Both the position numbers and the translations under genes were made by a program. From Burkholderiaceae bacterium (lineage in GTDB: Bacteria > Pseudomonadota > Gammaproteobacteria > Burkholderiales > Burkholderiaceae_F), in contig JAOUJD010000001.1 in the NCBI GenBank assembly GCA_029883565.1, positions 1 through 47,496 of the forward strand: a DNA stretch of 47,496 nt, written 5' to 3'. Shown piece by piece: positions 2-11,370 of this stretch; positions within the stretch are counted from its first letter, which is position 1; every line of letters starts with the position of its first letter. The notes under the pieces were generated by a model that was given only the letters and a program-made list of their open reading frames with translations, was not told where the DNA came from and ran no database searches.

Positions 2-292
2 GGCCTGCTGGAAATCGGCTCGGCCGTCGACATGAAGGCAACACAAGGCTTCTCCAGGTCGGGACCGACCATCGCGGTCCTGCTGGCGGCGCTGCTGTCT
101 TTCTACCTGCTCGCGCTCGCAATGAAGGCGTTGCCGGCCGGTACCGCCTACGCCGTATGGGTGGGAATCGGTGCGGTCGGCGCAGCGATCCTTGGCATCA
201 CCGTGCTCGGGGAGCCGGCGTCGCTGCCGCGGGTCCCCAGCATCCTGCTGATCGTGGCCGGAGTGACCGGCCTGCGACTGTTCCAGGGATGA
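2..292 (+). CDS. sugE: SMR-family small multidrug/guanidinium exporter (SugE/Gdx-like), 5-prime truncated by the window edge
   Basis: The frame is open from base 2 (GLLEIGSAVDMKATQGFSRS...). It closely resembles E. coli SugE ([21 protein letters not shown]...LPVGTAYAVWTGIGAVGAA...GE). About 97 codons are visible of an expected ~105. Confidence 0.85.
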   Translation, partial: GLLEIGSAVDMKATQGFSRSGPTIAVLLAALLSFYLLALAMKALPAGTAYAVWVGIGAVGAAILGITVLGEPASLPRVPSILLIVAGVTGLRLFQG

Positions 293-358: not shown

Positions 359-1825
359 ATGAAAGCCCTGCGCCCGCTCGCTGCCCTGGCCGTCGCCGCG
401 CTCCTCGCCGCGTGCCGGCCGGGAGGCGATGGCGCCGCCGCCCGCCTCGAACCTTGCCGCATTCCGGGCGTCGAACGTGAAGTGCGATGTGGAACAGTCA
501 CCGTCGCCGAGGATCCGGACCGGCCGACGGGGCCCGCAATCGACATTCGCTTCGCGGTCGTTCCGGCGGTTGCGCGCAACCAGCAGGCCGATCCAGTCTT
601 CGTGCTCGCCGGCGGTCCCGGGCAGGCTGCGACGCGCACCGCCCGGCAGATGCTGCCGGTCCTGAGCGAGGTCAATTCGCGGCGCGACATCGTCTTCGTG
701 GACCAGCGCGGCACCGGCGGATCACATCCGCTCGAGTGCGAGGTCGAGGAGACATCGCTGGCCGCGACCTTCGAGCAGACGCAGCAGCTCGACCACCTGC
801 GCGCCTGCCTGAAGGGATTGAAAGGCGACCTGCGCCAGTACGCGACGTGGATCGCGGTGCGTGACTACGACGCCGTGCGCGCGCGGCTCGGCGCCGAGCG
901 GATCAATCTATGGGGCGGCTCGTACGGAACGCGCGCTGCGCTCGAATACATGCGGCAGTACCCGGAGCGCGTGCGCAGCGCGGTGCTCGACGGAGTTGCG
1001 CCCGCGGACATGGTCCTGCCGGTGTCCTTCGCGATCGATGCCGACGCGGCGCTCGCGGCCCTCGCGGAGGTCTGCGCGCGCGACGATCGCTGCGCGCGCC
1101 GCTACCCCGACATGGCAAGCCGCGTGGAAGAACTGCTGGCGCAGGCGGACCGCGGCCTCGAGGTGCAGGTGCCGCACCCGCTGACCGGCGCGCCCGAGCC
1201 CGTGCGGCTGAACCGGCAGGTCCTTTCCTCGCTGCTGCGGGTGCCGCTTTACGCCCCGCAGCTCTCCGCGGTGCTGCCCTACGCGCTCGCAAGGGCGGCA
1301 CGCGGCGACTACACGGCACTGGTCGCCCTGAATTCGGCGGTAGCCAGCGGCGTGAACGAGAACTTTGCGGCTGGAATGCACTTCGCGGTGATCTGCGCGG
1401 AAGACGTGCCGCGCGTGGACGCGGAGCAGCGCGCGCGGGTGGCCGCCACCCGCTTCGGCGGCGCGTTCCTCGATGTCTACGAGCAGGCGTGCCGCGAGGT
1501 CCCGGTCCGTCCGGTTCCATCGTCGTTCTACGGGATCCCGGCCAGCAGGGCGCCGGTCCTGGTGCTGTCAGGAGGCCTCGATCCGGCGACACCGCCACGC
1601 CACGGCGAACGCGTGACCGAACGGCTGGGCAACGCGCGACACATCGTGTCGCCCTTCCTGGGGCACATCGTCAGTACGCAGGGCTGCGCGCCGACGCAGA
1701 TCGCGCGCTTCTTCCGCGACGCGTCCTTCGAGCGGATCGACGAAGCCTGCCTGACGCGACTGCCGCCGGCGACGTTCTTCGAACCCATCGTCGCGGCCCG
1801 GCCGGCGGGCAAGGATGCCCGATGA
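359..1825 (+). CDS. Alpha/beta hydrolase lipoprotein, S33 (tripeptidyl aminopeptidase / TAP-like) family
   Basis: There is a lipoprotein signal MKALRPLAALAVAALLAAC, with lipobox LLAAC and its Cys codon at 413-415. The nucleophile elbow is GGSYGT. The C-terminal TAP-like segment reads PVLVLSGGLDPATPP...GH. I prefer the ATG at 359 over the ORF-track start at 311 because it gives a canonical signal peptide. Confidence 0.75.
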   Translation: MKALRPLAALAVAALLAACRPGGDGAAARLEPCRIPGVEREVRCGTVTVAEDPDRPTGPAIDIRFAVVPAVARNQQADPVFVLAGGPGQAATRTARQMLPVLSEVNSRRDIVFVDQRGTGGSHPLECEVEETSLAATFEQTQQLDHLRACLKGLKGDLRQYATWIAVRDYDAVRARLGAERINLWGGSYGTRAALEYMRQYPERVRSAVLDGVAPADMVLPVSFAIDADAALAALAEVCARDDRCARRYPDMASRVEELLAQADRGLEVQVPHPLTGAPEPVRLNRQVLSSLLRVPLYAPQLSAVLPYALARAARGDYTALVALNSAVASGVNENFAAGMHFAVICAEDVPRVDAEQRARVAATRFGGAFLDVYEQACREVPVRPVPSSFYGIPASRAPVLVLSGGLDPATPPRHGERVTERLGNARHIVSPFLGHIVSTQGCAPTQIARFFRDASFERIDEACLTRLPPATFFEPIVAARPAGKDAR

Positions 1826-2574
1826 TCGAGGTCCAGCACCTGTCGAAGCGGTTCGAAGCGCGGGTCGAGGGCAGGCGGGCGCAGGTGGTCGCGATCGACG
1901 ACATCAGCTTCGTCGCCCACGACGGCCGCGTCACGGCGCTGCTCGGCCCCAATGGCGCCGGCAAGACGACCACGATGCGCGTCGTGGCCGGACTGGTGCA
2001 TGCCGACCGCGGCACGGCGCGCGTGGGCGGCGTCGACGTCGCCACCGACCCGCACGCGGTGCGGGCCCAGCTCGGCATGCTGTCGGATGCGCGCGGGCTG
2101 TACGGCCGGCTGACCGCGCGCGAGAACGTCCGCTATTACGCGGATCTGCGCCGCGTGCCGGGCGACGAGTGCGAGCAGCGCCTTGCCATGCTCTCGGACC
2201 TGCTCGACATGAAGGGCCTGCTGGACCGCCGGATCGAGGGCTTTTCAACCGGCGAGCGCATGAAGGTCGCGCTCGCGCGCGCCCTGATCCACGACCCGCA
2301 GCACCTGATCCTCGATGAACCCACCAACGGGCTGGACGTCGTGTCGACCCGAGCGCTGCGCCGCCTCCTGCTGCACCTGCGCGGCGCCGGCAAGTGCATC
2401 GTGGTCTCGACTCACATCATGCAGGAGGTGGAACAGCTGGCCGACGAGATCGTGATCGTCGCGCACGGCCGCACGATCGCGCGCGGAACCGCCGCCGCGA
2501 TCTGCGGCGAAGCCGGCACGGCGACGCTGGAAGACGCGTTCGTCGCGCTGGCCTACGCGGAGCCTGCGCGATGA
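1822..2574 (+). CDS. ABC transporter ATP-binding protein (ABC-2 / NatA-like)
   Basis: Walker A is GPNGAGKTT, the signature-like motif is FSTGERMKV, and Walker B is LILDEPTNGLD. The start ATG at 1822 overlaps the upstream stop (ATGA). The rest of long ORF 910-2574 is out-of-frame read-through of the hydrolase gene. Confidence 0.9.
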   Translation: MIEVQHLSKRFEARVEGRRAQVVAIDDISFVAHDGRVTALLGPNGAGKTTTMRVVAGLVHADRGTARVGGVDVATDPHAVRAQLGMLSDARGLYGRLTARENVRYYADLRRVPGDECEQRLAMLSDLLDMKGLLDRRIEGFSTGERMKVALARALIHDPQHLILDEPTNGLDVVSTRALRRLLLHLRGAGKCIVVSTHIMQEVEQLADEIVIVAHGRTIARGTAAAICGEAGTATLEDAFVALAYAEPAR

Positions 2575-3743
2575 CGACCGCCTGGGTCGTGTTCCGCAAG
2601 GAGCTGAAGGACGCGCTGCGCGATCGCCGCACCTGGATGATCGTTCTCGTCAGCTCGATCCTCGCCGGACCGATCGCGCTGCTGCTCCTGTCGACGTTCA
2701 TCGCGAGCGTCGAGGAGAACGTCGCTCGGCGCGAGGTCTACATGGTCGGGGCCGGTGCCGCTCCGACCCTTGTCAACTTCATCCAGCGCGCGGGCGGCAC
2801 CGTGAAGGAGGCCCCGGCCGGTTTCCGCGAGCAGGTCGCTTCCGGCGAATTGCAGAACGCCGTCGTCATCGTGCCAGCGGACTTCGAGGCCCGCCTCGCC
2901 CGCGGCGAGTCGATCCGTCTGGATGTCGTATTCGACGACACCTCGACTCGCAGCCAGGGCCCGTCACGCGCCACGCTGACGCTGCTGCGCGCGTTCAGCC
3001 GGGAACTCGGCAGCCAGCGGCTGATGGCGCGGGGAGTCAGCCTCCAGGTGCTGGCGCCCGTGGAGGTCGAGGAGATCAACCTGGCTGCCAGCAAGTCGCG
3101 CGGGGCCCAGCTGCTGTTCCTGGTGCCATGGCTCGCCCTGCTCGGCGCGGTGGTCGGCGCCATCAGTGTCGCCATCGACGTGACCGCCGGCGAACGGGAG
3201 CGGGGCTCCCTCGAACCCCTGTTGATGAACCCGGTGTCCACGCCCGCCATCGTGCTCGGCAAGTGGGCCGTGGTGGCGAGCTGTTCGGCCGCCGTCGTGG
3301 TCCTGACGCTGCTCGGGTTCCGCACGGCAATGATGTTCATCCGGAACGAGAGCCTGTCCGCGCTGATGCAGTTCGGCGCGGCCGAGTCCGGGCTGTTCCT
3401 CGCCATGCTGCTGCCGTTCGCGGCCATGGTCGCCGCCGTCAACATGTTCGCCGCCACCTACGGCCGCAGCCACAAGGAAGCGCAGACCTACGCGAGCTAC
3501 CTGACGATGCTGGTCAACTTCGCCCCCGTGATCCCGCTGTTCCTGTCGGTGCGCGACGCAACATGGCAGTTGTTCGTGCCGGCCATGGCGCAGCAGGGCG
3601 TCATGATGCGGGCGCTGCGTGGCGAGGCCATCGGAGCGGTCGATATCCTGCTGCCTGGCGTCATCGCGCTGGCGATCACCGCTCTCGCCCTGGGCGCGCA
3701 GGCACGCTTGCTGCAGCACGAACGCATCGTGTTCTCACGCTAG
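2571..3743 (+). CDS. ABC-2 type transporter permease (NatB-like) with a large extracytoplasmic loop after TM1
   Basis: The ATG at 2571 overlaps the ATPase stop (ATGA). There is an N-terminal TM (WMIVLVSSILAGPIALLLL), a soluble loop of about 190 aa, then about 5 further hydrophobic helices. This is typical NatB / ABC2_membrane topology. Confidence 0.8.
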   Translation: MTTAWVVFRKELKDALRDRRTWMIVLVSSILAGPIALLLLSTFIASVEENVARREVYMVGAGAAPTLVNFIQRAGGTVKEAPAGFREQVASGELQNAVVIVPADFEARLARGESIRLDVVFDDTSTRSQGPSRATLTLLRAFSRELGSQRLMARGVSLQVLAPVEVEEINLAASKSRGAQLLFLVPWLALLGAVVGAISVAIDVTAGERERGSLEPLLMNPVSTPAIVLGKWAVVASCSAAVVVLTLLGFRTAMMFIRNESLSALMQFGAAESGLFLAMLLPFAAMVAAVNMFAATYGRSHKEAQTYASYLTMLVNFAPVIPLFLSVRDATWQLFVPAMAQQGVMMRALRGEAIGAVDILLPGVIALAITALALGAQARLLQHERIVFSR

Positions 3744-3819
3744 ACGACGGCATTGGCGGGGGTTTCGCGGCTTTTCCCGAGATGGGCGCGCACAGGTCCG
3801 GTGCGATAATCGGCGATCC

Positions 3820-5232
3820 ATGTCCGAACCGCTGACCGCCACCGTTCCGCAGGCTGCGTCCGACGAGCCGGTGCCGCCGAAATCGATCGGCCGCTTCACG
3901 ATCCTCAACGAGATCGGACGCGGTTCGTACGGTGTCGTCTACGCGGCGCATGACCCGGTGCTGGGCCGGGAAGTGGCGATCAAGGTCATCCCGCTGTCGC
4001 GCGAGGAACAGTTCCGAACGCAGATGGAGGCGAGCTTCCTGCGCGAGGCAAAGTCGGCCGGCGGGATGAGCCATCCGAGCATCGTCACGATCTACGACGC
4101 CGGCAAGACCGAGTCGCTGGCCTACATCGCGATGGAACGACTGCACGGCCAGGACCTGCACGAGTACCTGGCGAGCGGCAACCGGATGAGCCCGCGGCAG
4201 GCAGCCGCGATGATGATGCGGGTGGCCGACGCCATCCACTACGCCAACAAGCGCGGCCTGGTTCATCGCGACATCAAGCCGAGCAACATCTTCCTGTCGC
4301 GCGACCTCAAGCCCAAGCTCCTCGACTTCGGCACGGCGCTCGCCCCGGTGGCGGACGCGCCGAAGAACGGCTCGAGGCAGCTGGTCGGCACCCCGAACTA
4401 CATGTCGCCCGAGCAGGCCAAGGGCGAGTCGCTCGACGCGCGCAGCGACATCTTCTCGCTCGGGTCCATCCTCTACGAACTGCTGGCCGGGCGACGCGCC
4501 TTCGACGGTCGCACGATCGACGAGACGCTCGACCAGGTGCTGACGGCTGCGCCCAAGCCGGTCGAGAAGATCCGGCCCGACACGCCCCCTCCCCTGGCCC
4601 AGGTCGTGCGAAAGGCGATGTCGCGCGACCCGGCCGAGCGCTACCAGAAGGCCTCCGAACTGCGCAACGCCCTCGCCGAGTTCGTCGACGGATCCCGGCC
4701 GTCGTCGGTCGACGCATCGGTCCCGGCTCCGCCCGAGGGTGCGGTCGCTCCTGCCGCGCAATCACGACGGACGATGTCGGTGCTGATCGGCCTCCTGACG
4801 CTGGTCGGTGCGGCTGGCATCGGAGTCGCGCTGCTGAATCGGGAGCCGCCGGCCCCGCCGCCGCAGCAGGTCGTCGTTCCAACGCCTGTCATTCCGCCGA
4901 TGACTCCGCCGCCTCCCGCGACCCAGCCAACCGGGCCCATGACGGCCGGCGCCGAGACGGCGAAGGCGGAAAGCAAGGCGGCCCAGCGCAAGCGCGCGGA
5001 AGTGGCGGTCGCAGCGCCGCCACCCACCGATGGCACCATCGTCATCGCGGTGGCGCCGTGGGGCGAAGTGGTCGTCGACGGCGCCGTGCAGGGCGTCTCG
5101 CCACCGCTGACGCAGCTCAAGCTGCCGGCGGGGATGCATTCGATCGAGATCCGCAACGGATCATCGCCACCGTTTTCCGCCCGCGTCGAGTTGCGGGCCG
5201 GCGAGAAGCTGCAGATCCAGCATCGGTTCTAG
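3820..5232 (+). CDS. Transmembrane Hanks-type Ser/Thr protein kinase with a C-terminal (periplasmic) PEGA domain
   Basis: All canonical kinase motifs are present: G-loop GRGSYGVVY, VAIK, HRDIKPSN (HRD at 4264-4272), DFG (4324-4332), GTPNYMSPE and DIFSLG. A single TM (MSVLIGLLTLVGAAGIGVALL, about 4774-4836) is followed by a Pro-rich linker. The PEGA-like domain is IAVAPWGEVVVDG...LPAGMHSIEIRN (5029-5229). Confidence 0.9.
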   Translation: MSEPLTATVPQAASDEPVPPKSIGRFTILNEIGRGSYGVVYAAHDPVLGREVAIKVIPLSREEQFRTQMEASFLREAKSAGGMSHPSIVTIYDAGKTESLAYIAMERLHGQDLHEYLASGNRMSPRQAAAMMMRVADAIHYANKRGLVHRDIKPSNIFLSRDLKPKLLDFGTALAPVADAPKNGSRQLVGTPNYMSPEQAKGESLDARSDIFSLGSILYELLAGRRAFDGRTIDETLDQVLTAAPKPVEKIRPDTPPPLAQVVRKAMSRDPAERYQKASELRNALAEFVDGSRPSSVDASVPAPPEGAVAPAAQSRRTMSVLIGLLTLVGAAGIGVALLNREPPAPPPQQVVVPTPVIPPMTPPPPATQPTGPMTAGAETAKAESKAAQRKRAEVAVAAPPPTDGTIVIAVAPWGEVVVDGAVQGVSPPLTQLKLPAGMHSIEIRNGSSPPFSARVELRAGEKLQIQHRF

Positions 5233-5427
5233 TGCGCCGCCCCTGCCGGGCAGCCGCTGCCGGACTCGGGGAAGCGTCCGCGTGTTGACGGACGGCAAGG
5301 ACAACGACGACCGATGCGGCGGATTGCCGCCCTTTTCCGCGCTTCGGGCCGTTGTGACCCCCCGCCGCATCGTCTAGCCTCCTCGAATCGGGAGTCCGCC
5401 GGCATCGCTCGTCGAGCCGTCGTCGTC

Positions 5428-6906
5428 ATGGCAGAAGCGCTGACGCACAACCTCAAGCTGATCGGCCGCTATTCCATCCTGCGCGAGCTGCGACGGGACC
5501 GGTACACGGTCGCCTACCTGGCGTTCGACCCGGTACTGAACCGCGAACTCATCCTGAAGGCGGTCCAGTTGCGACCGCCACCGGGGCAGGAAGCGACGGG
5601 CCACGACCGCATCGATCAGGCGTTCATGCGCCAGGCCCAGGCCGCAGGACGCCTGCACCACCCCCATATCGTCACGGTGTTCGACGCCGGGCGCGTGCAC
5701 AACATCGGTTACCTGGCGCTGGAAAGGGTCGACGGCAAACTGCTCGACGAGGCGATGGCGGAGGGCTTCCGTCCCGGTTTCCTGCAGGCGGCCGACATCG
5801 CAGCACGCATCGCGGATGCCATCGAATACGCGCACGCGCGCGGCGTGCCGCACGGTCACCTCGGCGCTTCCCGCATCTACCTGCAGGGGCCCGAGCGGTC
5901 GCCCAAGGTGATGGGTTTCGGCGGCTGGATCGACAGCGGAGCCACCGGCGACTTCGAACTTGCCGCGACCGAGGTCCTGCTGCCGTTTTTCGAAAGCGAA
6001 CTCAGCCCCGAGGCGCGGCGCAAGGACGTGCGAGCGCTCGGCGCCCTGCTGTTCCTGCTGCTGACCGGCACCCGCCCGGACCTGAAGGCACTGCGCGATC
6101 GGCGCGGCGGCGAAAGCGCCATCATCGACATGCGGCCCGCGGCTCCGCTCGCGCTTGCCGAAATCGCGGAAAGCGCGCTGGAGCTGCGCAACCTGCGCCC
6201 GTTCGGTACCGCTGCGCAGATGCGCAATGCCCTCACCACCTACCTGTGGGGCAGCCGCGAGGCACACGGGCTGCCGAACGCGGCAACGATCACGGGCGCA
6301 CCCGCGCGCCTCGAGATTGCACCGGCCGCGGCAACGCTCGCAGTGCCCACCATGGAAGCCGCCGCGCCGCCAGCGCGGGTGCGCGGTGGCCGCCGGACCA
6401 GCCGGTTCCTGGGCGTCGGCGCGCTGGGCGCAGCGGTTCTTGCGATGCTCGCGATTGCGAGTACGGCGCTGACTGGAGGCGGCGAGCGCGAGCGCGTCAC
6501 CGATCGGGCGGCGGCCGGTTCCGCGGTTGCGTCGGACCCGATGCCCGCGCCCGCGGCCACGGCCACGGCTGCACCCCCTGCGCGGGCAAGCACGCCGGCG
6601 CCATCGGCACAACCCGCCCAGAGAACGTCCGCGCAGACAACCCGGTTCGGGGTCTCGTCCGAGCGCCCCGTTCGGACGGCCGCCGCAGCCCCGGGCAGCG
6701 AGGGCGTCGTCGAGCTCGCGGTGGCGCCGTGGGGCGAGGTGTTCGTCAACGGCGCAGCGCGTGGCACGACCCCGCCACTGCAGCACCTGACGCTGCCCGC
6801 CGGCCGCCACACCATAGAACTGCGCAACGGCGATCGGCAACCGTACATTGCCCAGGTCGTGGTTGCCCCGGACCGGCCGCAGCAGATCACCTACCGTTTC
6901 CAGTAG
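5428..6906 (+). CDS. Predicted pseudokinase: Ser/Thr-kinase-fold paralogue with degenerate catalytic motifs, one TM and a C-terminal PEGA domain
   Basis: The overall architecture matches the upstream kinase, but the catalytic motifs are degenerate. The G-loop is LRRDRYTVAY (no Gly). HRD is replaced by HGH (5851-5859, context PHGHLGASRIYL). DFG is replaced by GFG (5914-5922). No APE motif is present. The beta3 Lys context is retained (ELILK). The TM is FLGVGALGAAVLAMLAIA. The PEGA domain is LAVAPWGEVFVNG...LPAGRHTIELRN (6703-6903). Confidence 0.8.
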   Translation: MAEALTHNLKLIGRYSILRELRRDRYTVAYLAFDPVLNRELILKAVQLRPPPGQEATGHDRIDQAFMRQAQAAGRLHHPHIVTVFDAGRVHNIGYLALERVDGKLLDEAMAEGFRPGFLQAADIAARIADAIEYAHARGVPHGHLGASRIYLQGPERSPKVMGFGGWIDSGATGDFELAATEVLLPFFESELSPEARRKDVRALGALLFLLLTGTRPDLKALRDRRGGESAIIDMRPAAPLALAEIAESALELRNLRPFGTAAQMRNALTTYLWGSREAHGLPNAATITGAPARLEIAPAAATLAVPTMEAAAPPARVRGGRRTSRFLGVGALGAAVLAMLAIASTALTGGGERERVTDRAAAGSAVASDPMPAPAATATAAPPARASTPAPSAQPAQRTSAQTTRFGVSSERPVRTAAAAPGSEGVVELAVAPWGEVFVNGAARGTTPPLQHLTLPAGRHTIELRNGDRQPYIAQVVVAPDRPQQITYRFQ

Positions 6907-6915
6907 GCTCGCGCC

Positions 6916-7362
6916 ATGATGCGGATTCGACGCCACTCCGCCACAGCCAGCGCCGCGCTGCTCGCACTGCTCGCCGGCTGCGCGACCCCGCCCCCGCCGC
7001 CACCCGCGCCACCGACCGTGAGCATCGCGCGCCTGTACGAGCAGCCGGCCGAGCGCGCGTTCCTGAACGCTCTCAGGTTCTACGAGGAAGGCCAGTACGA
7101 GCGCGCCGAAACGCTGTTCCGGCGGGCGCTCGCCGACGGCCTGAAGGACGCGCACGACGCCGCGACCGCGAACAAGCACCTCGCCTTCATCGCGTGTGCC
7201 TACGGTCGCCTGGCGGAATGCGAAACCGACTTCCACTCGGCCTTCGCCGCCGACCCGGATTTCGCGTTGACGCAGGCCGAGGTCGGGCACCCCGTCTGGG
7301 GTCCGGTCTACAAGCGGGTCGCCGCCGAGTGGGGGGCGGGAAAGACGCCCGCGAAGAAGTAG
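6916..7362 (+). CDS. Small lipoprotein with a TPR-like helical region
   Basis: The signal and lipobox are MMRIRRHSATASAALLALLAGC, with the Cys codon at 6979-6981, followed by a poly-Pro linker. A helical repeat-like segment reads AFLNALRFYEEGQYERAETLFRRAL. The C-terminal motif is GHPVWGPVY. The gene starts 9 bp after the pseudokinase stop. Confidence 0.7.
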   Translation: MMRIRRHSATASAALLALLAGCATPPPPPPAPPTVSIARLYEQPAERAFLNALRFYEEGQYERAETLFRRALADGLKDAHDAATANKHLAFIACAYGRLAECETDFHSAFAADPDFALTQAEVGHPVWGPVYKRVAAEWGAGKTPAKK

Positions 7363-7410: not shown

Positions 7411-8400
7411 CTAGAACCCGATGCGGGACTTCCTCGCCACCCGCTCGTCCATGACGTCTTCCGGCAGCACGGCATTGCGACCGGCGAGCTTCGCGTTGCC
7501 GAACGCGGCCAGCATGGCCCGGCGCATCTCGCGCGGGCTGAGGCGCGCCAGCCGGTCGAGGCTCTCGGCGTCGAGGTCGTCCGGAAACGCGCGCCCCCAC
7601 GCATGCTCGCCGCGTAGTTCGTCGTAAATGCCGCGCGCGATGCGACGGGCGCCTTCCTCGTCGGGCGCGTCGATCTCGTAGACATTCATCCGGTTCAGGA
7701 TCGGTTCCGGGATCGAACGGGCGTCGTTCGCGGTCGCGATCCACACGACGTCCGACGCGTCGATCGGGACCTCGGCGAACTCGTCGACGAACTCGGCCGC
7801 CGTATCGTGCTCGAGAAGCGTGTACAGGCTGCCCAGCGGGTCGTACTGTGCGTCGCCGCCCGCCTTGTCGATCTCGTCGACCACGATGACCGGGTTCGCG
7901 TAATCGCCCTTGACCAGCGCATCGAACACCTTGCCCGGCTTGGCGTTCTTCCACTGGGCCGAGGCGCCCGACAGGATCCAGCCAGCGGTGAGCGAACTCA
8001 TGCCGATGAAGTTGTGCCCGGTTCCGAGCAGCTTCGCCAGGCGACGCGCGAAATGCGTCTTGCCGATACCCGGGTCCCCGAGCAGAAGGATGGGCTCGAG
8101 CTCGAGCGGATCGTCGGACGACAGGCACAGCGCGAGCTGCTTGCGGATGTCCTCGAGCGGCGCCCCGAAGTTCGGCAGCTCCTCGACCAGAGCGTCGATG
8201 TCCGGCAGCGCCGAGGGCTTGATCACGAAGCGCTGGCCGCCGGTGCGGATCATGCGAAGGTAGGTGGCGCGCAGCGCCTCGTTGGCGCCCGAGCCCAGCT
8301 CCTGCAACCCGTTGAGCGCCTCCTCGACGCGCGGGACGCGGTACACGTCCTTGAAGCCGGCGATCGATATCGGGGTCGGGATCGTTGCAGGCAGGCTCAT
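7411..8400 (-). CDS. AAA+ ATPase (classical Lon/FtsH-like AAA module, no protease or other effector domain)
   Basis: Walker A is LLLGDPGIGKTHFA and Walker B is VIVVDEIDKA. The sensor-1 region is WIATAN and the Arg-finger region is PEPILNRM. I chose the ATG at 8400 (MSLPATIP..., GGGAG upstream) rather than the ORF-track start at 8655. Confidence 0.8.
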   Translation of the reverse strand: MSLPATIPTPISIAGFKDVYRVPRVEEALNGLQELGSGANEALRATYLRMIRTGGQRFVIKPSALPDIDALVEELPNFGAPLEDIRKQLALCLSSDDPLELEPILLLGDPGIGKTHFARRLAKLLGTGHNFIGMSSLTAGWILSGASAQWKNAKPGKVFDALVKGDYANPVIVVDEIDKAGGDAQYDPLGSLYTLLEHDTAAEFVDEFAEVPIDASDVVWIATANDARSIPEPILNRMNVYEIDAPDEEGARRIARGIYDELRGEHAWGRAFPDDLDAESLDRLARLSPREMRRAMLAAFGNAKLAGRNAVLPEDVMDERVARKSRIGF

Positions 8401-8701: not shown

Positions 8702-9355
8702 TCAGACCGGGACGCGCAGTCCCTGTTCGGACGCCCAGACCGCCGCTTCCACGCGGGAGCGGAATCCGAGTTTCTTCAGCAGGTGCTTCACGTGCACCTT
8801 GACCGTGCCCTCGGTGATGGAGAGGTTGCGCGCGATCACCTTGTTGCTCTGCCCGCCTGCCAGGCACTTCAGAACGGCGAGTTCGCGGTCGGTCAGGTCG
8901 CGGACGTCGCGCCGTTCGCCGCGCGCCTCGTCGCGCAGAGCGCCCGCGAGCGCGGCCGTCAGCGCGTCGCTGATGACGGTGCGGCCCTCGAGCGCGTCGC
9001 GCACGCGCGCCAGCAGCTGCTCGGGCTCCATGTCCTTGAGAAGGTAGCCGTCAGCGCCGGCCCGGATCGCGGCCATCAGGTCCTCGGGGGCGTCGGACAC
9101 GGTCAGCATGACCACGCGCCGCGAAGGGTCCTCTTCCTTCAGCGCCGACAGGATCTCCAGGCCGCCACTGCCCTTGAGGTTGAGGTCGAGCAGCGTCAGG
9201 TCCGGCTCCTTCTCGGCCGCCAGCCGGACGGCCGCCTCGTAGTCGCCGGCTTCGCCCACGACCTCGAAGCCCGGATCGAGCTGCAGCAGCTGGATCACGC
9301 CGCGGCGAAACAGCGGATGGTCGTCGACGACCAGGATCGTATGGCGTTCTGTCAT
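8702..9355 (-). CDS. narL: Nitrate/nitrite response regulator NarL (receiver + LuxR-type HTH)
   Basis: The receiver domain reads ILVVDDHPLFRRG...LLDLNL. The C-terminal HTH reads LTDRELAVLKCLAGGQSNKVIARNLSITEGTVKVHVKHLLKKLG. The start overlaps the narX stop (TGATG). Confidence 0.9.
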   Translation of the reverse strand: MTERHTILVVDDHPLFRRGVIQLLQLDPGFEVVGEAGDYEAAVRLAAEKEPDLTLLDLNLKGSGGLEILSALKEEDPSRRVVMLTVSDAPEDLMAAIRAGADGYLLKDMEPEQLLARVRDALEGRTVISDALTAALAGALRDEARGERRDVRDLTDRELAVLKCLAGGQSNKVIARNLSITEGTVKVHVKHLLKKLGFRSRVEAAVWASEQGLRVPV

Positions 9356-11262
9356 CAGGAAGTTCCCAGTTCGGTGGACGCGCCGAGCGGCGCTGGCGGC
9401 GGGCCGAACGCCGTCTGCGCATTGAAGGTCAGCCGCACCCGGGTGCCGACCGGATCGCGGCGTTCGATTACAAGCACTCCGCCGACCGACTGCGCGCGGT
9501 CACGCATGATGGACAGGCCGAAGTGGCCGCGCGGGGACGAGGGGCTCACGATCCCGATGCCGTCGTCCTCGACGCAGACGTCGATCGCCTGCCCCTGGCC
9601 GCGGTGCAGCGACACCCAGGCATGGCGCGCGTGCGCGTGATGCTCGACGTTCGTCAGGGCCTCGCGCACCACCTGCAGCACGTGCACCTGTTCGTTGGCC
9701 GACAGCTCGACCCGCAGCAGGTCGTTGACCAGCGTGGCCCGCACGCCGGAACGGCGCTCGAATTCAGCCACGGTATCGCGCAGGGCGCCGGCGAAGCCTT
9801 CGTCGCCGAGGCCGAGCCGGAACGTCGTCAGCAGTTCACGCAGCTCCCGGTACGCGCTGTTGATTCCTTCGCGCAGCTCCCCGAGCACGGCGGCCGACTG
9901 CGGAGCGCTGTCCTCGCGCTCGATATGTGCCGCGAGCCGCGCGATCTGGATCTTGGTGTACGACAGGGACTGCGCGAGCGAGTCGTGCAGTTCGCGCGCG
10001 ATGGCGGCCCGTTCCTCCAGCACGCCGAGTCGCCGGTGCTCGTCGCGCCGCTCGGCAGCCGCCAGCGCCGCGCCGACGTGACGGCCCATCGTCTCGGCCA
10101 GTTCCAGCTGCCACACTTCCAGTCCCTTGCCGGGCGGCAGCACCAGCGGCATCACCCCGTAGGAGACGCCGCCCTCGAGCAGCGGAATGCCGAGGATGCG
10201 CCGCTCACCGGCCTCGCCGGGTTCGGTCCGCCAGGTGACTTTCGCGCCGTCGGCGCAATTGCGGCAGTCGACGCCGCCGCAAGCCTTGATCGTGCTCTCG
10301 TCGCGCGCCAGCGGCATGCCGCGCGTGCTGTCCCCGTGGATCGAACAGATCACCCCGCTTTCCACTCCAAGCGCCTTGCGTACCATCGCCAGCACGCGCT
10401 TGAGTGATTCGGTGTCCACCGGCTTCTCGGCCAGCATGCGCGTTGTCTCGTACAGCAGGGCCAGCGACTCGTTGCGGCGTTCCAGGTCGCGGGTCTTCTC
10501 GGCGACCTGCTTCTCGAGCGAGCCGTACAGGCGCGACAGGTCGTCGACCATGAAGTTGAAGGCCTGGCCGAGCTGCCCGATCTCGTCGGGTCCTGTGCTT
10601 GCCGCCCGCACCCGGAAGTCGCCCGTGCGCACTCTCTTCGCGGCCTCGGCCAGGCGCGCGATCGGCTGGAACACCTCGATGTTCAGCAGGAACAGGGCCG
10701 CCACCACCAGCATCATCATCACGAAGAAACCGACGCCGAGCACCAGGCGCAGCCGCTGGATCCTGCTTTCGAGATCGGTCTCGATCTGACGGACGAGGAC
10801 GTCCACCTTGCTGACGAATGTCGGGACAACACCGAGGAACTCGGCGCGGGACACTTCGTCATCGACGGCTCGCCGCGCCAGCGGCTTGATGCGCGACTCC
10901 CACTCGATGACGATGCCGGAATAGATCCGGTGCACGGGATTGGCGCCGTCGTCCGGAATGCCGCTCATCAGCGAGGGGCTCTTCAGGCGCCGCTCGAATT
11001 CGGTGATCGCTGCCTCGGCCGCATGCTGCCGGTCCTCAGCGGCGCCGCGCGTATCCGCCACCCGCGTGGACAGCGCGTACGACTGCATACGCAGCGAGCC
11101 AGCCATGTTGATCGCGCTCGCCTTGCCCGTCGACTGCTCGGTGAAGACGGTCGCCGCCACGATGATCGACAGGGCCAGCAGTGCCACCACGGACAACACC
11201 AGCCCGACCCGGATCAGGGTCGAGTCCGACCACACGCGGCGCAGCGAAGCGAAGGAAGTCAT
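9355..11262 (-). CDS. narX: Nitrate/nitrite sensor histidine kinase NarX
   Basis: It has two TMs flanking a periplasmic domain with a P-box-like motif, INMAGSLRMQSYAL. A HAMP region is present, and the H-box is ARELHDSLAQSLSY. The C-terminal HATPase reads VEDDGIGI. I chose the ATG at 11262 (MTSFASLRRVW). Confidence 0.9.
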   Translation of the reverse strand: MTSFASLRRVWSDSTLIRVGLVLSVVALLALSIIVAATVFTEQSTGKASAINMAGSLRMQSYALSTRVADTRGAAEDRQHAAEAAITEFERRLKSPSLMSGIPDDGANPVHRIYSGIVIEWESRIKPLARRAVDDEVSRAEFLGVVPTFVSKVDVLVRQIETDLESRIQRLRLVLGVGFFVMMMLVVAALFLLNIEVFQPIARLAEAAKRVRTGDFRVRAASTGPDEIGQLGQAFNFMVDDLSRLYGSLEKQVAEKTRDLERRNESLALLYETTRMLAEKPVDTESLKRVLAMVRKALGVESGVICSIHGDSTRGMPLARDESTIKACGGVDCRNCADGAKVTWRTEPGEAGERRILGIPLLEGGVSYGVMPLVLPPGKGLEVWQLELAETMGRHVGAALAAAERRDEHRRLGVLEERAAIARELHDSLAQSLSYTKIQIARLAAHIEREDSAPQSAAVLGELREGINSAYRELRELLTTFRLGLGDEGFAGALRDTVAEFERRSGVRATLVNDLLRVELSANEQVHVLQVVREALTNVEHHAHARHAWVSLHRGQGQAIDVCVEDDGIGIVSPSSPRGHFGLSIMRDRAQSVGGVLVIERRDPVGTRVRLTFNAQTAFGPPPAPLGASTELGTS

Positions 11263-11370
11263 GTGCCGATTTTCCCACTGAAGTCCGCGGCCCACGGCGT
11301 TGCGAAGGGACTGCTCCGCGGCCGGCTACCTCTGGGGCGCCATTCTGGCGCCCCGTTCGATTCCGCCTTC

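Follow-up and report, generated by a model that had tools for sequence, protein, structure and literature searches.

A PEGA Kinase–Pseudokinase–TssQ Lipoprotein Cassette in a Burkholderiaceae_F Genome Lacking a Detectable Type VI Secretion System

Introduction

In Acidovorax (Paracidovorax) citrulli, the outer-membrane protein TssW (Aave_1467) is encoded between ppkA (Aave_1466) and fha (Aave_1468) and is required for the non-polar placement of PpkA and of the T6SS (type VI secretion system) (PMC12607579). TssW binds PpkA, TssM, and TssJ at their periplasmic domains, and its binding to the periplasmic domain of PpkA was detected by pull-down and two-hybrid assays (PMC12607579). In this work, we describe a locus with a related kinase–lipoprotein pair, located at positions 359–7362 of a 47,496-nucleotide stretch of DNA (below called the window), which is the complete 47.5 kb contig JAOUJD010000001.1 of assembly GCA_029883565.1 from a Burkholderiaceae bacterium. 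The six genes of this locus, all on the plus strand, are two separable units. Unit A (359–3743) encodes a hydrolase lipoprotein and an ATP-binding cassette (ABC) exporter, while unit B (3820–7362) encodes an active Hanks-type kinase, a paralogous pseudokinase, and a lipoprotein of the TssQ family. We consider it probable, at roughly 0.6, that beside unit A the locus carries, in unit B, a T6SS-independent member of a PEGA–TssQ envelope-signaling cassette of Burkholderiales that operates by the mechanism proposed below.

Two other described systems resemble this locus. In the TagQRST-PpkA-Fha1-PppA pathway of the Pseudomonas aeruginosa H1-T6SS, an outer-membrane lipoprotein acts upstream of a transmembrane Hanks kinase and an ABC transporter is encoded nearby, a logic that the six genes share. 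In Xanthomonas citri, a T6SS is controlled by PknS of the PknS-EcfK system, a transmembrane Hanks receptor kinase relying on a periplasmic tetratricopeptide repeat (TPR) module (PMC13147305). The T6SS-free classes of PEGA/TssQ loci reported here were not found described in the literature searched; relative to that literature, three findings are new: that most of the TssQ family is T6SS-free, that PEGA and TssQ are invariantly paired, and that a variant with a kinase and a pseudokinase exists.

The source genome is a metagenome-assembled genome (MAG) of 3.03 Mb in 393 contigs, 93.7% complete, from the bacterial family Burkholderiaceae_F of the order Burkholderiales, referred to below as the host family. 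Three sets of sequences were compared with it: 401 evenly sampled genomes of the order, in which TssQ was detected with the NCBIfam model NF038027 and T6SS with TssC; the 20 kb surrounding each of 60 TssQ genes from many families; and 21 loci of the host family.

The Kinase–Pseudokinase–Lipoprotein Cassette

The last gene of the locus (P0006, 6916–7362, plus strand) encodes a TPR-like outer-membrane lipoprotein that passes NF038027, "TssQ family T6SS-associated lipoprotein", with 82.0 bits against a cut-off of 65 bits. Residues 43–137 align with positions 4–98 of the 100-position model, and the match was repeated in a genome-wide profile search. A lipobox, LLAGC, occupies residues 18–22 and is followed by a poly-proline tether. 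Its Cys22 is invariant in 39 homologues, which are 65–80% identical and share 44 invariant positions, including C94/C102 and a GHPxWGPVY motif. The AlphaFold2 (AF2) model is compact, all-helical over residues 44–141, and TPR-like (predicted local distance difference test, pLDDT, 84). Its fold matches in PDB are generic TPR proteins only, all at E >= 0.05, and weak TPR similarity links the protein to PilW and BamD. Two other proteins bearing the name TssQ, a transmembrane protein of Bacteroidota and a Proteus tssQ product named under a different scheme, were considered and set aside as unrelated.

The two genes upstream encode single-pass proteins of the same topology. In P0004 (3820–5232, plus strand; Pkinase 167.5 bits), a cytoplasmic kinase domain is joined by one transmembrane segment (approximately residues 318–341) and a proline-rich linker to a C-terminal periplasmic PEGA-like domain at approximately residues 400–470. 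This protein is an active-type Hanks Ser/Thr kinase, as its motifs GRGSYGVV, VAIK, FLREAK, HRDIKPSN, DFG, and SPE are intact and are kept in 21 orthologues from the host family. P0005 (5428–6906, plus strand; Pkinase 32.6 bits) is 31% identical to P0004 over its full length, with its transmembrane segment at approximately residues 325–351 and a like C-terminal domain at approximately residues 420–492. In P0005 the corresponding motifs read RRDRYTVA, HGHLGASR, and GFGG, and the catalytic Asp, the Mg-binding Asp, and the Gly-rich loop are lost, which is in line with the initial annotation of this gene, made from the sequence alone, as a pseudokinase.

The substitutions in P0005 are not erratic. 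Across 16 orthologues of different genera the Gly-rich loop has become RRDRxxV, HRD has become HG[HQF], DFG has become GFG, and the Glu of helix C has become Gln; because these degenerate motifs are common to orthologues of different genera, they indicate that P0005 is a long-lived pseudokinase under selection. The pseudokinase gene is gone from five close relatives, some of the same genus, in which the kinase and TssQ genes stay, separated by a spacer of about 140 nucleotides (nt). It is therefore likely to modulate the system rather than to be essential for it.

Assignment of the C-terminal domains to PEGA rests on relatives as well as on the window. The domain of P0004 scores 18.4 bits against the PF08308 (PEGA) cut-off of 20.8 bits, and P0005 has no PF08308 match. 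Homologous C-terminal domains in relatives score 23.6, 21.5, and 35.6 bits, many database relatives carry PF08308, and the AF2 model of a related protein shows the domain as six beta-strands with pLDDT of about 90.

All six open reading frames (ORFs) are intact. As read from the sequence, the junctions are ATGA overlaps between hydrolase and ATPase genes (1822–1825) and between ATPase and permease genes (2571–2574), followed by gaps of 76 nt (permease–kinase), 195 nt (kinase–pseudokinase), and 9 nt (pseudokinase–lipoprotein); the co-orientation, overlaps, and gaps agree exactly with those first annotated.

PEGA and TssQ as a Constant Pair

A custom PEGA hidden Markov model, built from the C-terminal 72 amino acids (aa) of P0004, P0005, and their relatives, matches a protein in 57 of the 60 TssQ loci. 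In 50 of these 60 loci, the gene directly upstream of TssQ on the same strand ends in a PEGA domain, which in 49 cases lies no more than 3 aa (0–3) from the C-terminus. Hanks kinase genes adjoin TssQ on the same strand in 42 of the 60 loci (23 upstream and 19 downstream). The N-terminal modules of the PEGA proteins are exchanged among active kinase, pseudokinase (L042, L047, and L064), and class-3-cyclase-like domains, while PEGA and TssQ stay constant. Since a PEGA gene stands directly upstream of TssQ in 50 of 60 diverse loci, the conserved core is a PEGA receptor together with TssQ. The unit boundaries drawn initially overlooked this true invariant, namely a periplasmic PEGA domain encoded immediately before TssQ.

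The pairing also occurs within single proteins. In a T6SS locus (L043, 8879–9667, plus strand), a 262 aa protein that combines a signal peptide with fused TssQ-like TPR and PEGA domains is encoded between ppkA and the TssQ lipoprotein gene, and such fusions account for at least 24 protein clusters. The fusion of two domains is a classical indication that they work together.

The T6SS-free loci of other Burkholderiales fall into two further classes that share with the window the PEGA-then-TssQ core and the lack of a T6SS. One combines dual-FHA and PP2C genes with kinase(PEGA)-TssQ, and the other has the order cyclase-like(PEGA)-TssQ-tail-anchored kinase, in which the downstream kinase lacks an ectodomain. 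In contrast to both, the additional PEGA carrier in the window is a pseudokinase paralogue instead of a cyclase-like protein, and FHA and PP2C genes are unlinked. Across the loci compared, the kinase–TssQ pair is flanked by dual-FHA genes in 17 and by PP2C genes in 23.

The cyclase-type order cyclase-like(PEGA)-TssQ-Hanks kinase was seen in 20 loci; there the sole transmembrane segment of the kinase lies at its extreme C-terminus, so that sensing domain and kinase are separate polypeptides. Tandem duplication of the TssQ gene was noticed in three loci (L082, L083, and L092) and in six genomes (G038, G102, G148, G191, G274, and G312).

Independence from T6SS

Neither the window nor the MAG as a whole (3.03 Mb) yielded a T6SS core gene in searches with the PF05943 profile and by tblastn with TssB, TssC, Hcp, TssM, TssK, and TssJ, and none of 10 sampled host-family genomes has TssC. 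The statement in the initial annotation that T6SS genes are missing from the window holds for the entire MAG, and its remark that the window has neither Fha nor PppA is likewise borne out: no TagH-type Fha (FHA plus T6SS_FHA_C) and no T6SS-cluster PppA is present there.

This situation is common in the order. TssQ is present in 146 of the 401 genomes, representing 66 of 168 genera, and TssC in 86; only 24 genomes have both, with an odds ratio of 0.61, and 122 of the 146 TssQ-positive genomes are without TssC. At the genome level the TssQ family is thus not associated with T6SS, and the association with a T6SS cluster that goes with NF038027 is not seen at this locus. As 10 of 10 host-family genomes and 122 of 146 carriers have no TssC, retention of the cassette without a T6SS is of long standing.

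Relation to Described Systems

A few TssQ genes do lie 6–20 kb from TssC. They occur in two arrangements: ppkA with its PEGA end, followed by TssQ, fha (T6SS_FHA_C), pppA, and tssJKLM; or tssJ divergent from tssQ-fha-pppA. TssM of these T6SS-embedded loci shares 70–72% identity with the Paracidovorax citrulli, Trinickia fusca, and Paraburkholderia aspalathi TssM sequences listed in Pei et al. 2025, mBio (PMC12607579). In NCBI annotation, the lipoprotein beside ppkA and fha bears the NF038027 family name.

Unit B shares with TssW-PpkA-Fha a small secreted outer-membrane protein of one NCBIfam family (to which TssW is assigned by position), encoded directly after a single-pass protein with a periplasmic C-terminal PEGA domain, there the Hanks kinase itself. 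Here, too, a TssW-type protein stands beside a transmembrane Hanks kinase, its gene starting 9 nt after the pseudokinase gene and 1.7 kb after that of the active kinase; some T6SS loci (L045) have, like the window, two PEGA proteins ahead of TssQ. The initial annotation had described the likeness to T6SS phosphorylation modules as analogy and not homology. Because the lipoprotein passes NF038027, the likeness is one of homology, and the pairing of PEGA kinase and TssQ recurs inside T6SS clusters. It extends to the kinase and lipoprotein genes (TssQ, 82 bits) and not to the hydrolase and ABC genes.

The differences are considerable. The window has no T6SS, no TagH-type Fha, and no adjoining PppA; its second PEGA protein is a conserved pseudokinase; its kinase domain is only about 24–30% identical to the T6SS-embedded kinases; and its TssQ is divergent. 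Since TssM and TssJ, known partners of TssW, are absent, the output must differ from that of TssW-PpkA-Fha.

TagQRST, which had been proposed as the parallel, fits less well than the PpkA-TssW(TssQ)-Fha type of Acidovorax (PMC12607579). P0006 matches the TssQ family, PilW, and BamD models only and no TagQ model, and there is no TagR-like gene. The ABC transporter is of the ABC-2/NatAB type and not LolCDE-like, as had been recognized initially, and the cassette is conserved without it. In that pathway PpkA has a vWA ectodomain, whereas the ectodomain is PEGA-like here, and Fha1, PppA, and T6SS are lacking.

PknS carries three TPRs fused to the kinase, has neither PEGA nor a separate lipoprotein, and acts through an extracytoplasmic function (ECF) sigma factor (PMC13147305). 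It was rejected as a relative of the window kinase, its ectodomain being TPR and not PEGA.

The Hydrolase–Exporter Operon and Its Separability

Unit A, a translationally coupled operon specific to the host family, encodes an ABC-2 exporter together with a protease-like serine-hydrolase lipoprotein of the Hip1/TAP-like kind. The hydrolase (P0001, 359–1825, plus strand) matches PF00561 (Abhydrolase_1, 70.3 bits) and PF08386 (Abhydrolase_4, TAP-like, 49.8 bits), and its closest solved structures are those of Mycobacterium tuberculosis Hip1/CaeA (E 4e-18). With a GGSYG nucleophile motif (GxSxG) and the lipobox LAAC, it belongs to the TAP/Hip1-like alpha/beta-hydrolases of family S33. The ATPase (P0002, 1822–2574, plus strand) is DrrA/NatA-like, with 103.8 bits for PF00005 (ABC_tran) and 203 bits for the drrA subfamily, the latter under that model's cut-off. 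The permease (P0003, 2571–3743, plus strand) is of the ABC-2 exporter type (PF12679, ABC2_membrane_2, 73.8 bits; PF12698, ABC2_membrane_3, 71.6 bits), with six hydrophobic segments and an extracytoplasmic loop of about 130 aa between the first and second transmembrane segments.

A 30- to 100-fold rise in depth was seen over the Walker region of the ATPase gene (window 1801–2100) in RNA-labelled runs. Expression of the gene was rejected as its cause, since loose ends show that the contigs come from unrelated organisms and match through the conserved motif.

The genes of unit A accompany TssQ in the host family only. Inside it, 66 of 121 genomes, from 17 of 26 genera, carry TssQ; among the 21 loci compared there, the arrangement hydrolase-ABC-kinase-(pseudokinase)-TssQ-AAA is frequent, and most genera keep it. 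Outside it, none of 59 TssQ loci has a hydrolase or ABC-2 homologue within 10 kb, and T6SS-embedded TssQ loci have no ABC component. A permease-based search for related loci returned three loci and was uninformative.

Even inside the host family the two units come apart. Three loci (L112, L119, and L120) keep the kinases and TssQ while hydrolase and ABC genes are missing, and insertions separate permease from kinase in two others, of 1.9 kb in L118 (~11.7–13.6 kb) and 5.8 kb in L121 (2542–8360). Across host-family loci the permease–kinase gap ranges from 63 to 5814 nt, whereas the spacing ahead of TssQ stays tight throughout. Collinearity is no weaker for unrelated flanks, namely ADH-EamA-(SMR) on the upstream side and AAA-narLX-narK on the downstream side. 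Because the flanks are equally syntenic, the hydrolase–ABC genes are missing in three loci, and the permease–kinase gap varies, the six genes are two separable units whose adjacency is inherited gene order. The single six-gene module that had been proposed is not upheld. A conservation analysis of the neighborhood, suggested with it, finds kinase, pseudokinase, and TssQ together well beyond this strain, while hydrolase and ABC genes co-occur with them only within the host family.

Logan contigs of relatives (93–97% identity), including RNA-labelled ones, span both intergenic gaps; they are too few, and their library type partly too doubtful, for operons to be defined. A scan of the 76 nt gap recognized neither a terminator nor a promoter, in DNA whose G+C content of about 70% (that of the window) gave such a scan nothing useful to work with.

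Proposed Mechanism and Alternative Explanations

In the mechanism we propose, the lipoprotein would be held in the outer membrane by its lipid anchor and reach down through its poly-proline tether. By analogy with TssW and PpkA of A. citrulli, it would bind the PEGA domains of the kinase and the pseudokinase, and this contact may set the position of the receptor pair, or its state of dimerization or activation. The active kinase would then phosphorylate cytoplasmic targets on Thr.

The signal could probably be read and reset by a dual-FHA protein and a PP2C phosphatase, the genes of which adjoin the cassette in other families and are unlinked to it in the host genus. Same-genus genomes contain an unlinked operon of PP2C and a 240 aa dual-FHA protein (L125, 7504–8995; L126, 7552–9047), whose orthologues elsewhere lie beside the cassette. 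In the MAG itself, contig C134 begins inside this PP2C gene (59–238), at the contig edge. This PP2C and dual-FHA pair is, in our view, the most plausible eraser and reader for the kinase.

Several observations weigh against this reading, and some of them favor other explanations. No FHA gene was found in the MAG, probably owing to an assembly gap. The heterodimer cannot be obligatory, since the pseudokinase is absent in some same-genus relatives. The binding of TssQ to PEGA is, for this pair, a prediction taken over from TssW, which is itself probably a TssQ-family protein by its position in orthologous T6SS loci and not by the sequence of Aave_1467: a search for A. citrulli with TssM across 401 genomes of the relevant family gave 76% identity at best, and primer-derived termini of Aave_1467 matched none of the proteins compared. 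In the AF2 model of the TPR–PEGA fusion, both domains exceed pLDDT 90, the linker is disordered, and no confident interface is formed (predicted template modeling score 0.54). The cassette could accordingly be functional with TssQ never touching PEGA and merely co-expressed with it, for instance as a PilW- or BamD-like TPR assembly factor, while PEGA binds peptidoglycan or another ligand; the weak similarity to PilW and BamD, the generic TPR fold matches, and the reported binding of TssW to TssM and TssJ, hence to other partners (PMC12607579), would suit this. We nevertheless regard it as unlikely, since the PEGA-then-TssQ order persists in 50 of 60 loci although the cytoplasmic module is swapped, fusions of the two domains exist, and TssW does bind the periplasmic domain of PpkA (PMC12607579).

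A separate issue is whether unit A takes part. Were all six genes a single system for envelope surveillance, the kinases would receive a signal from the hydrolase lipoprotein and the ABC-2 pump, as PpkA does from TagS/TagT. The common strand, the 76 nt gap with no recognizable terminator or promoter, and the gene order kept in most host-family genera speak for it, as do 14 of 20 informative host-family loci in which permease and kinase genes share a strand and lie no more than approximately 250 nt apart. A relative's contig from an RNA-labelled run bridges the 76 nt gap, and unit A may be co-transcribed with unit B in this lineage; given its further label, METAGENOMIC, and its even coverage of the two strands, the run may consist of DNA. 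Such a joint system appears improbable to us given the empty survey outside the host family, the T6SS-embedded loci devoid of an ABC component, the equally collinear ADH, EamA, AAA, narXL, and narK flanks, the losses and insertions described above, and a transporter of the ABC-2/NatAB and not of the LolCDE/MacB type to which TagTS belongs. More doubtful still is that kinase, pseudokinase, and TssQ have no present function and survive as decaying vestiges of a T6SS regulatory module that was lost. T6SS association gave the lipoprotein family its name, one kinase of the two is catalytically dead, the pseudokinase has been lost in some close relatives, and the window TssQ is a divergent member, the lowest scorer among those found (82 versus 93–131 bits). 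Against decay stand the intact ORFs, the 65–80% identity and 44 invariant positions of the 39 TssQ orthologues, the intact kinase motifs in 21 orthologues, the conservation of the pseudokinase substitutions themselves, and the long retention without T6SS; we hold the remnant explanation to be very improbable.

If unit B is a T6SS-independent PEGA–TssQ cassette, the view of its lipoprotein family changes. TssW, the only experimentally studied member, has been read purely as a T6SS positioning factor, a view that the name "T6SS-associated" perpetuates, while in the order T6SS is missing from approximately five in six carriers, and what constantly accompanies the lipoprotein is a periplasmic PEGA domain instead of a secretion machine. 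Since most carriers lack T6SS and PEGA is the constant partner, a general trans-envelope sensor is the better description of the family. Tentatively, and with less confidence than in the cassette as such, PEGA–TssQ might be an ancient, general outer-to-inner-membrane sensing cassette of Burkholderiales, plugged into kinase, pseudokinase–kinase, or cyclase-like outputs, of which the T6SS switch PpkA-TssW-Fha would be a minority use (about one sixth of carriers). At this locus, a heteromeric kinase–pseudokinase receptor bridged by one lipoprotein might report the state of the envelope to a Thr-phosphorylation network of dual-FHA and PP2C proteins unrelated to T6SS. The predicted contact, between the GHPxWGPxY face of TssQ and the PWGEV face of PEGA, is testable, and the receptor pair offers a simple bacterial system for pseudokinase regulation. 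The attractive, unsupported six-gene "TagQRST-like" model is corrected at the same time.

Neighboring Genes

Farther downstream, narL-narX (8702–11,295, minus strand) is divergent from narK1K2GHJI (from 11,484 onward, plus strand). The narXL/narK genes are collinear with the cassette in many host-family genera and served as a control for background synteny; a nar-regulatory role for the cassette, prompted by this neighborhood, was rejected as mere family-level collinearity. At the contig start, a 5'-truncated ORF (2–292, plus strand) probably represents the SMR (small multidrug-resistance) gene found ahead of the hydrolase, judging by synteny with two other loci (L002 and L005).

Converging on the TssQ gene is a gene for a 329 aa AAA+ ATPase (7414–8400, minus strand). 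Its first ~100 aa match no Pfam family, and the gene never adjoins TssQ outside the host family. Among the genes of the region it is the most strongly conserved inside the host family, at 77–93% aa identity.

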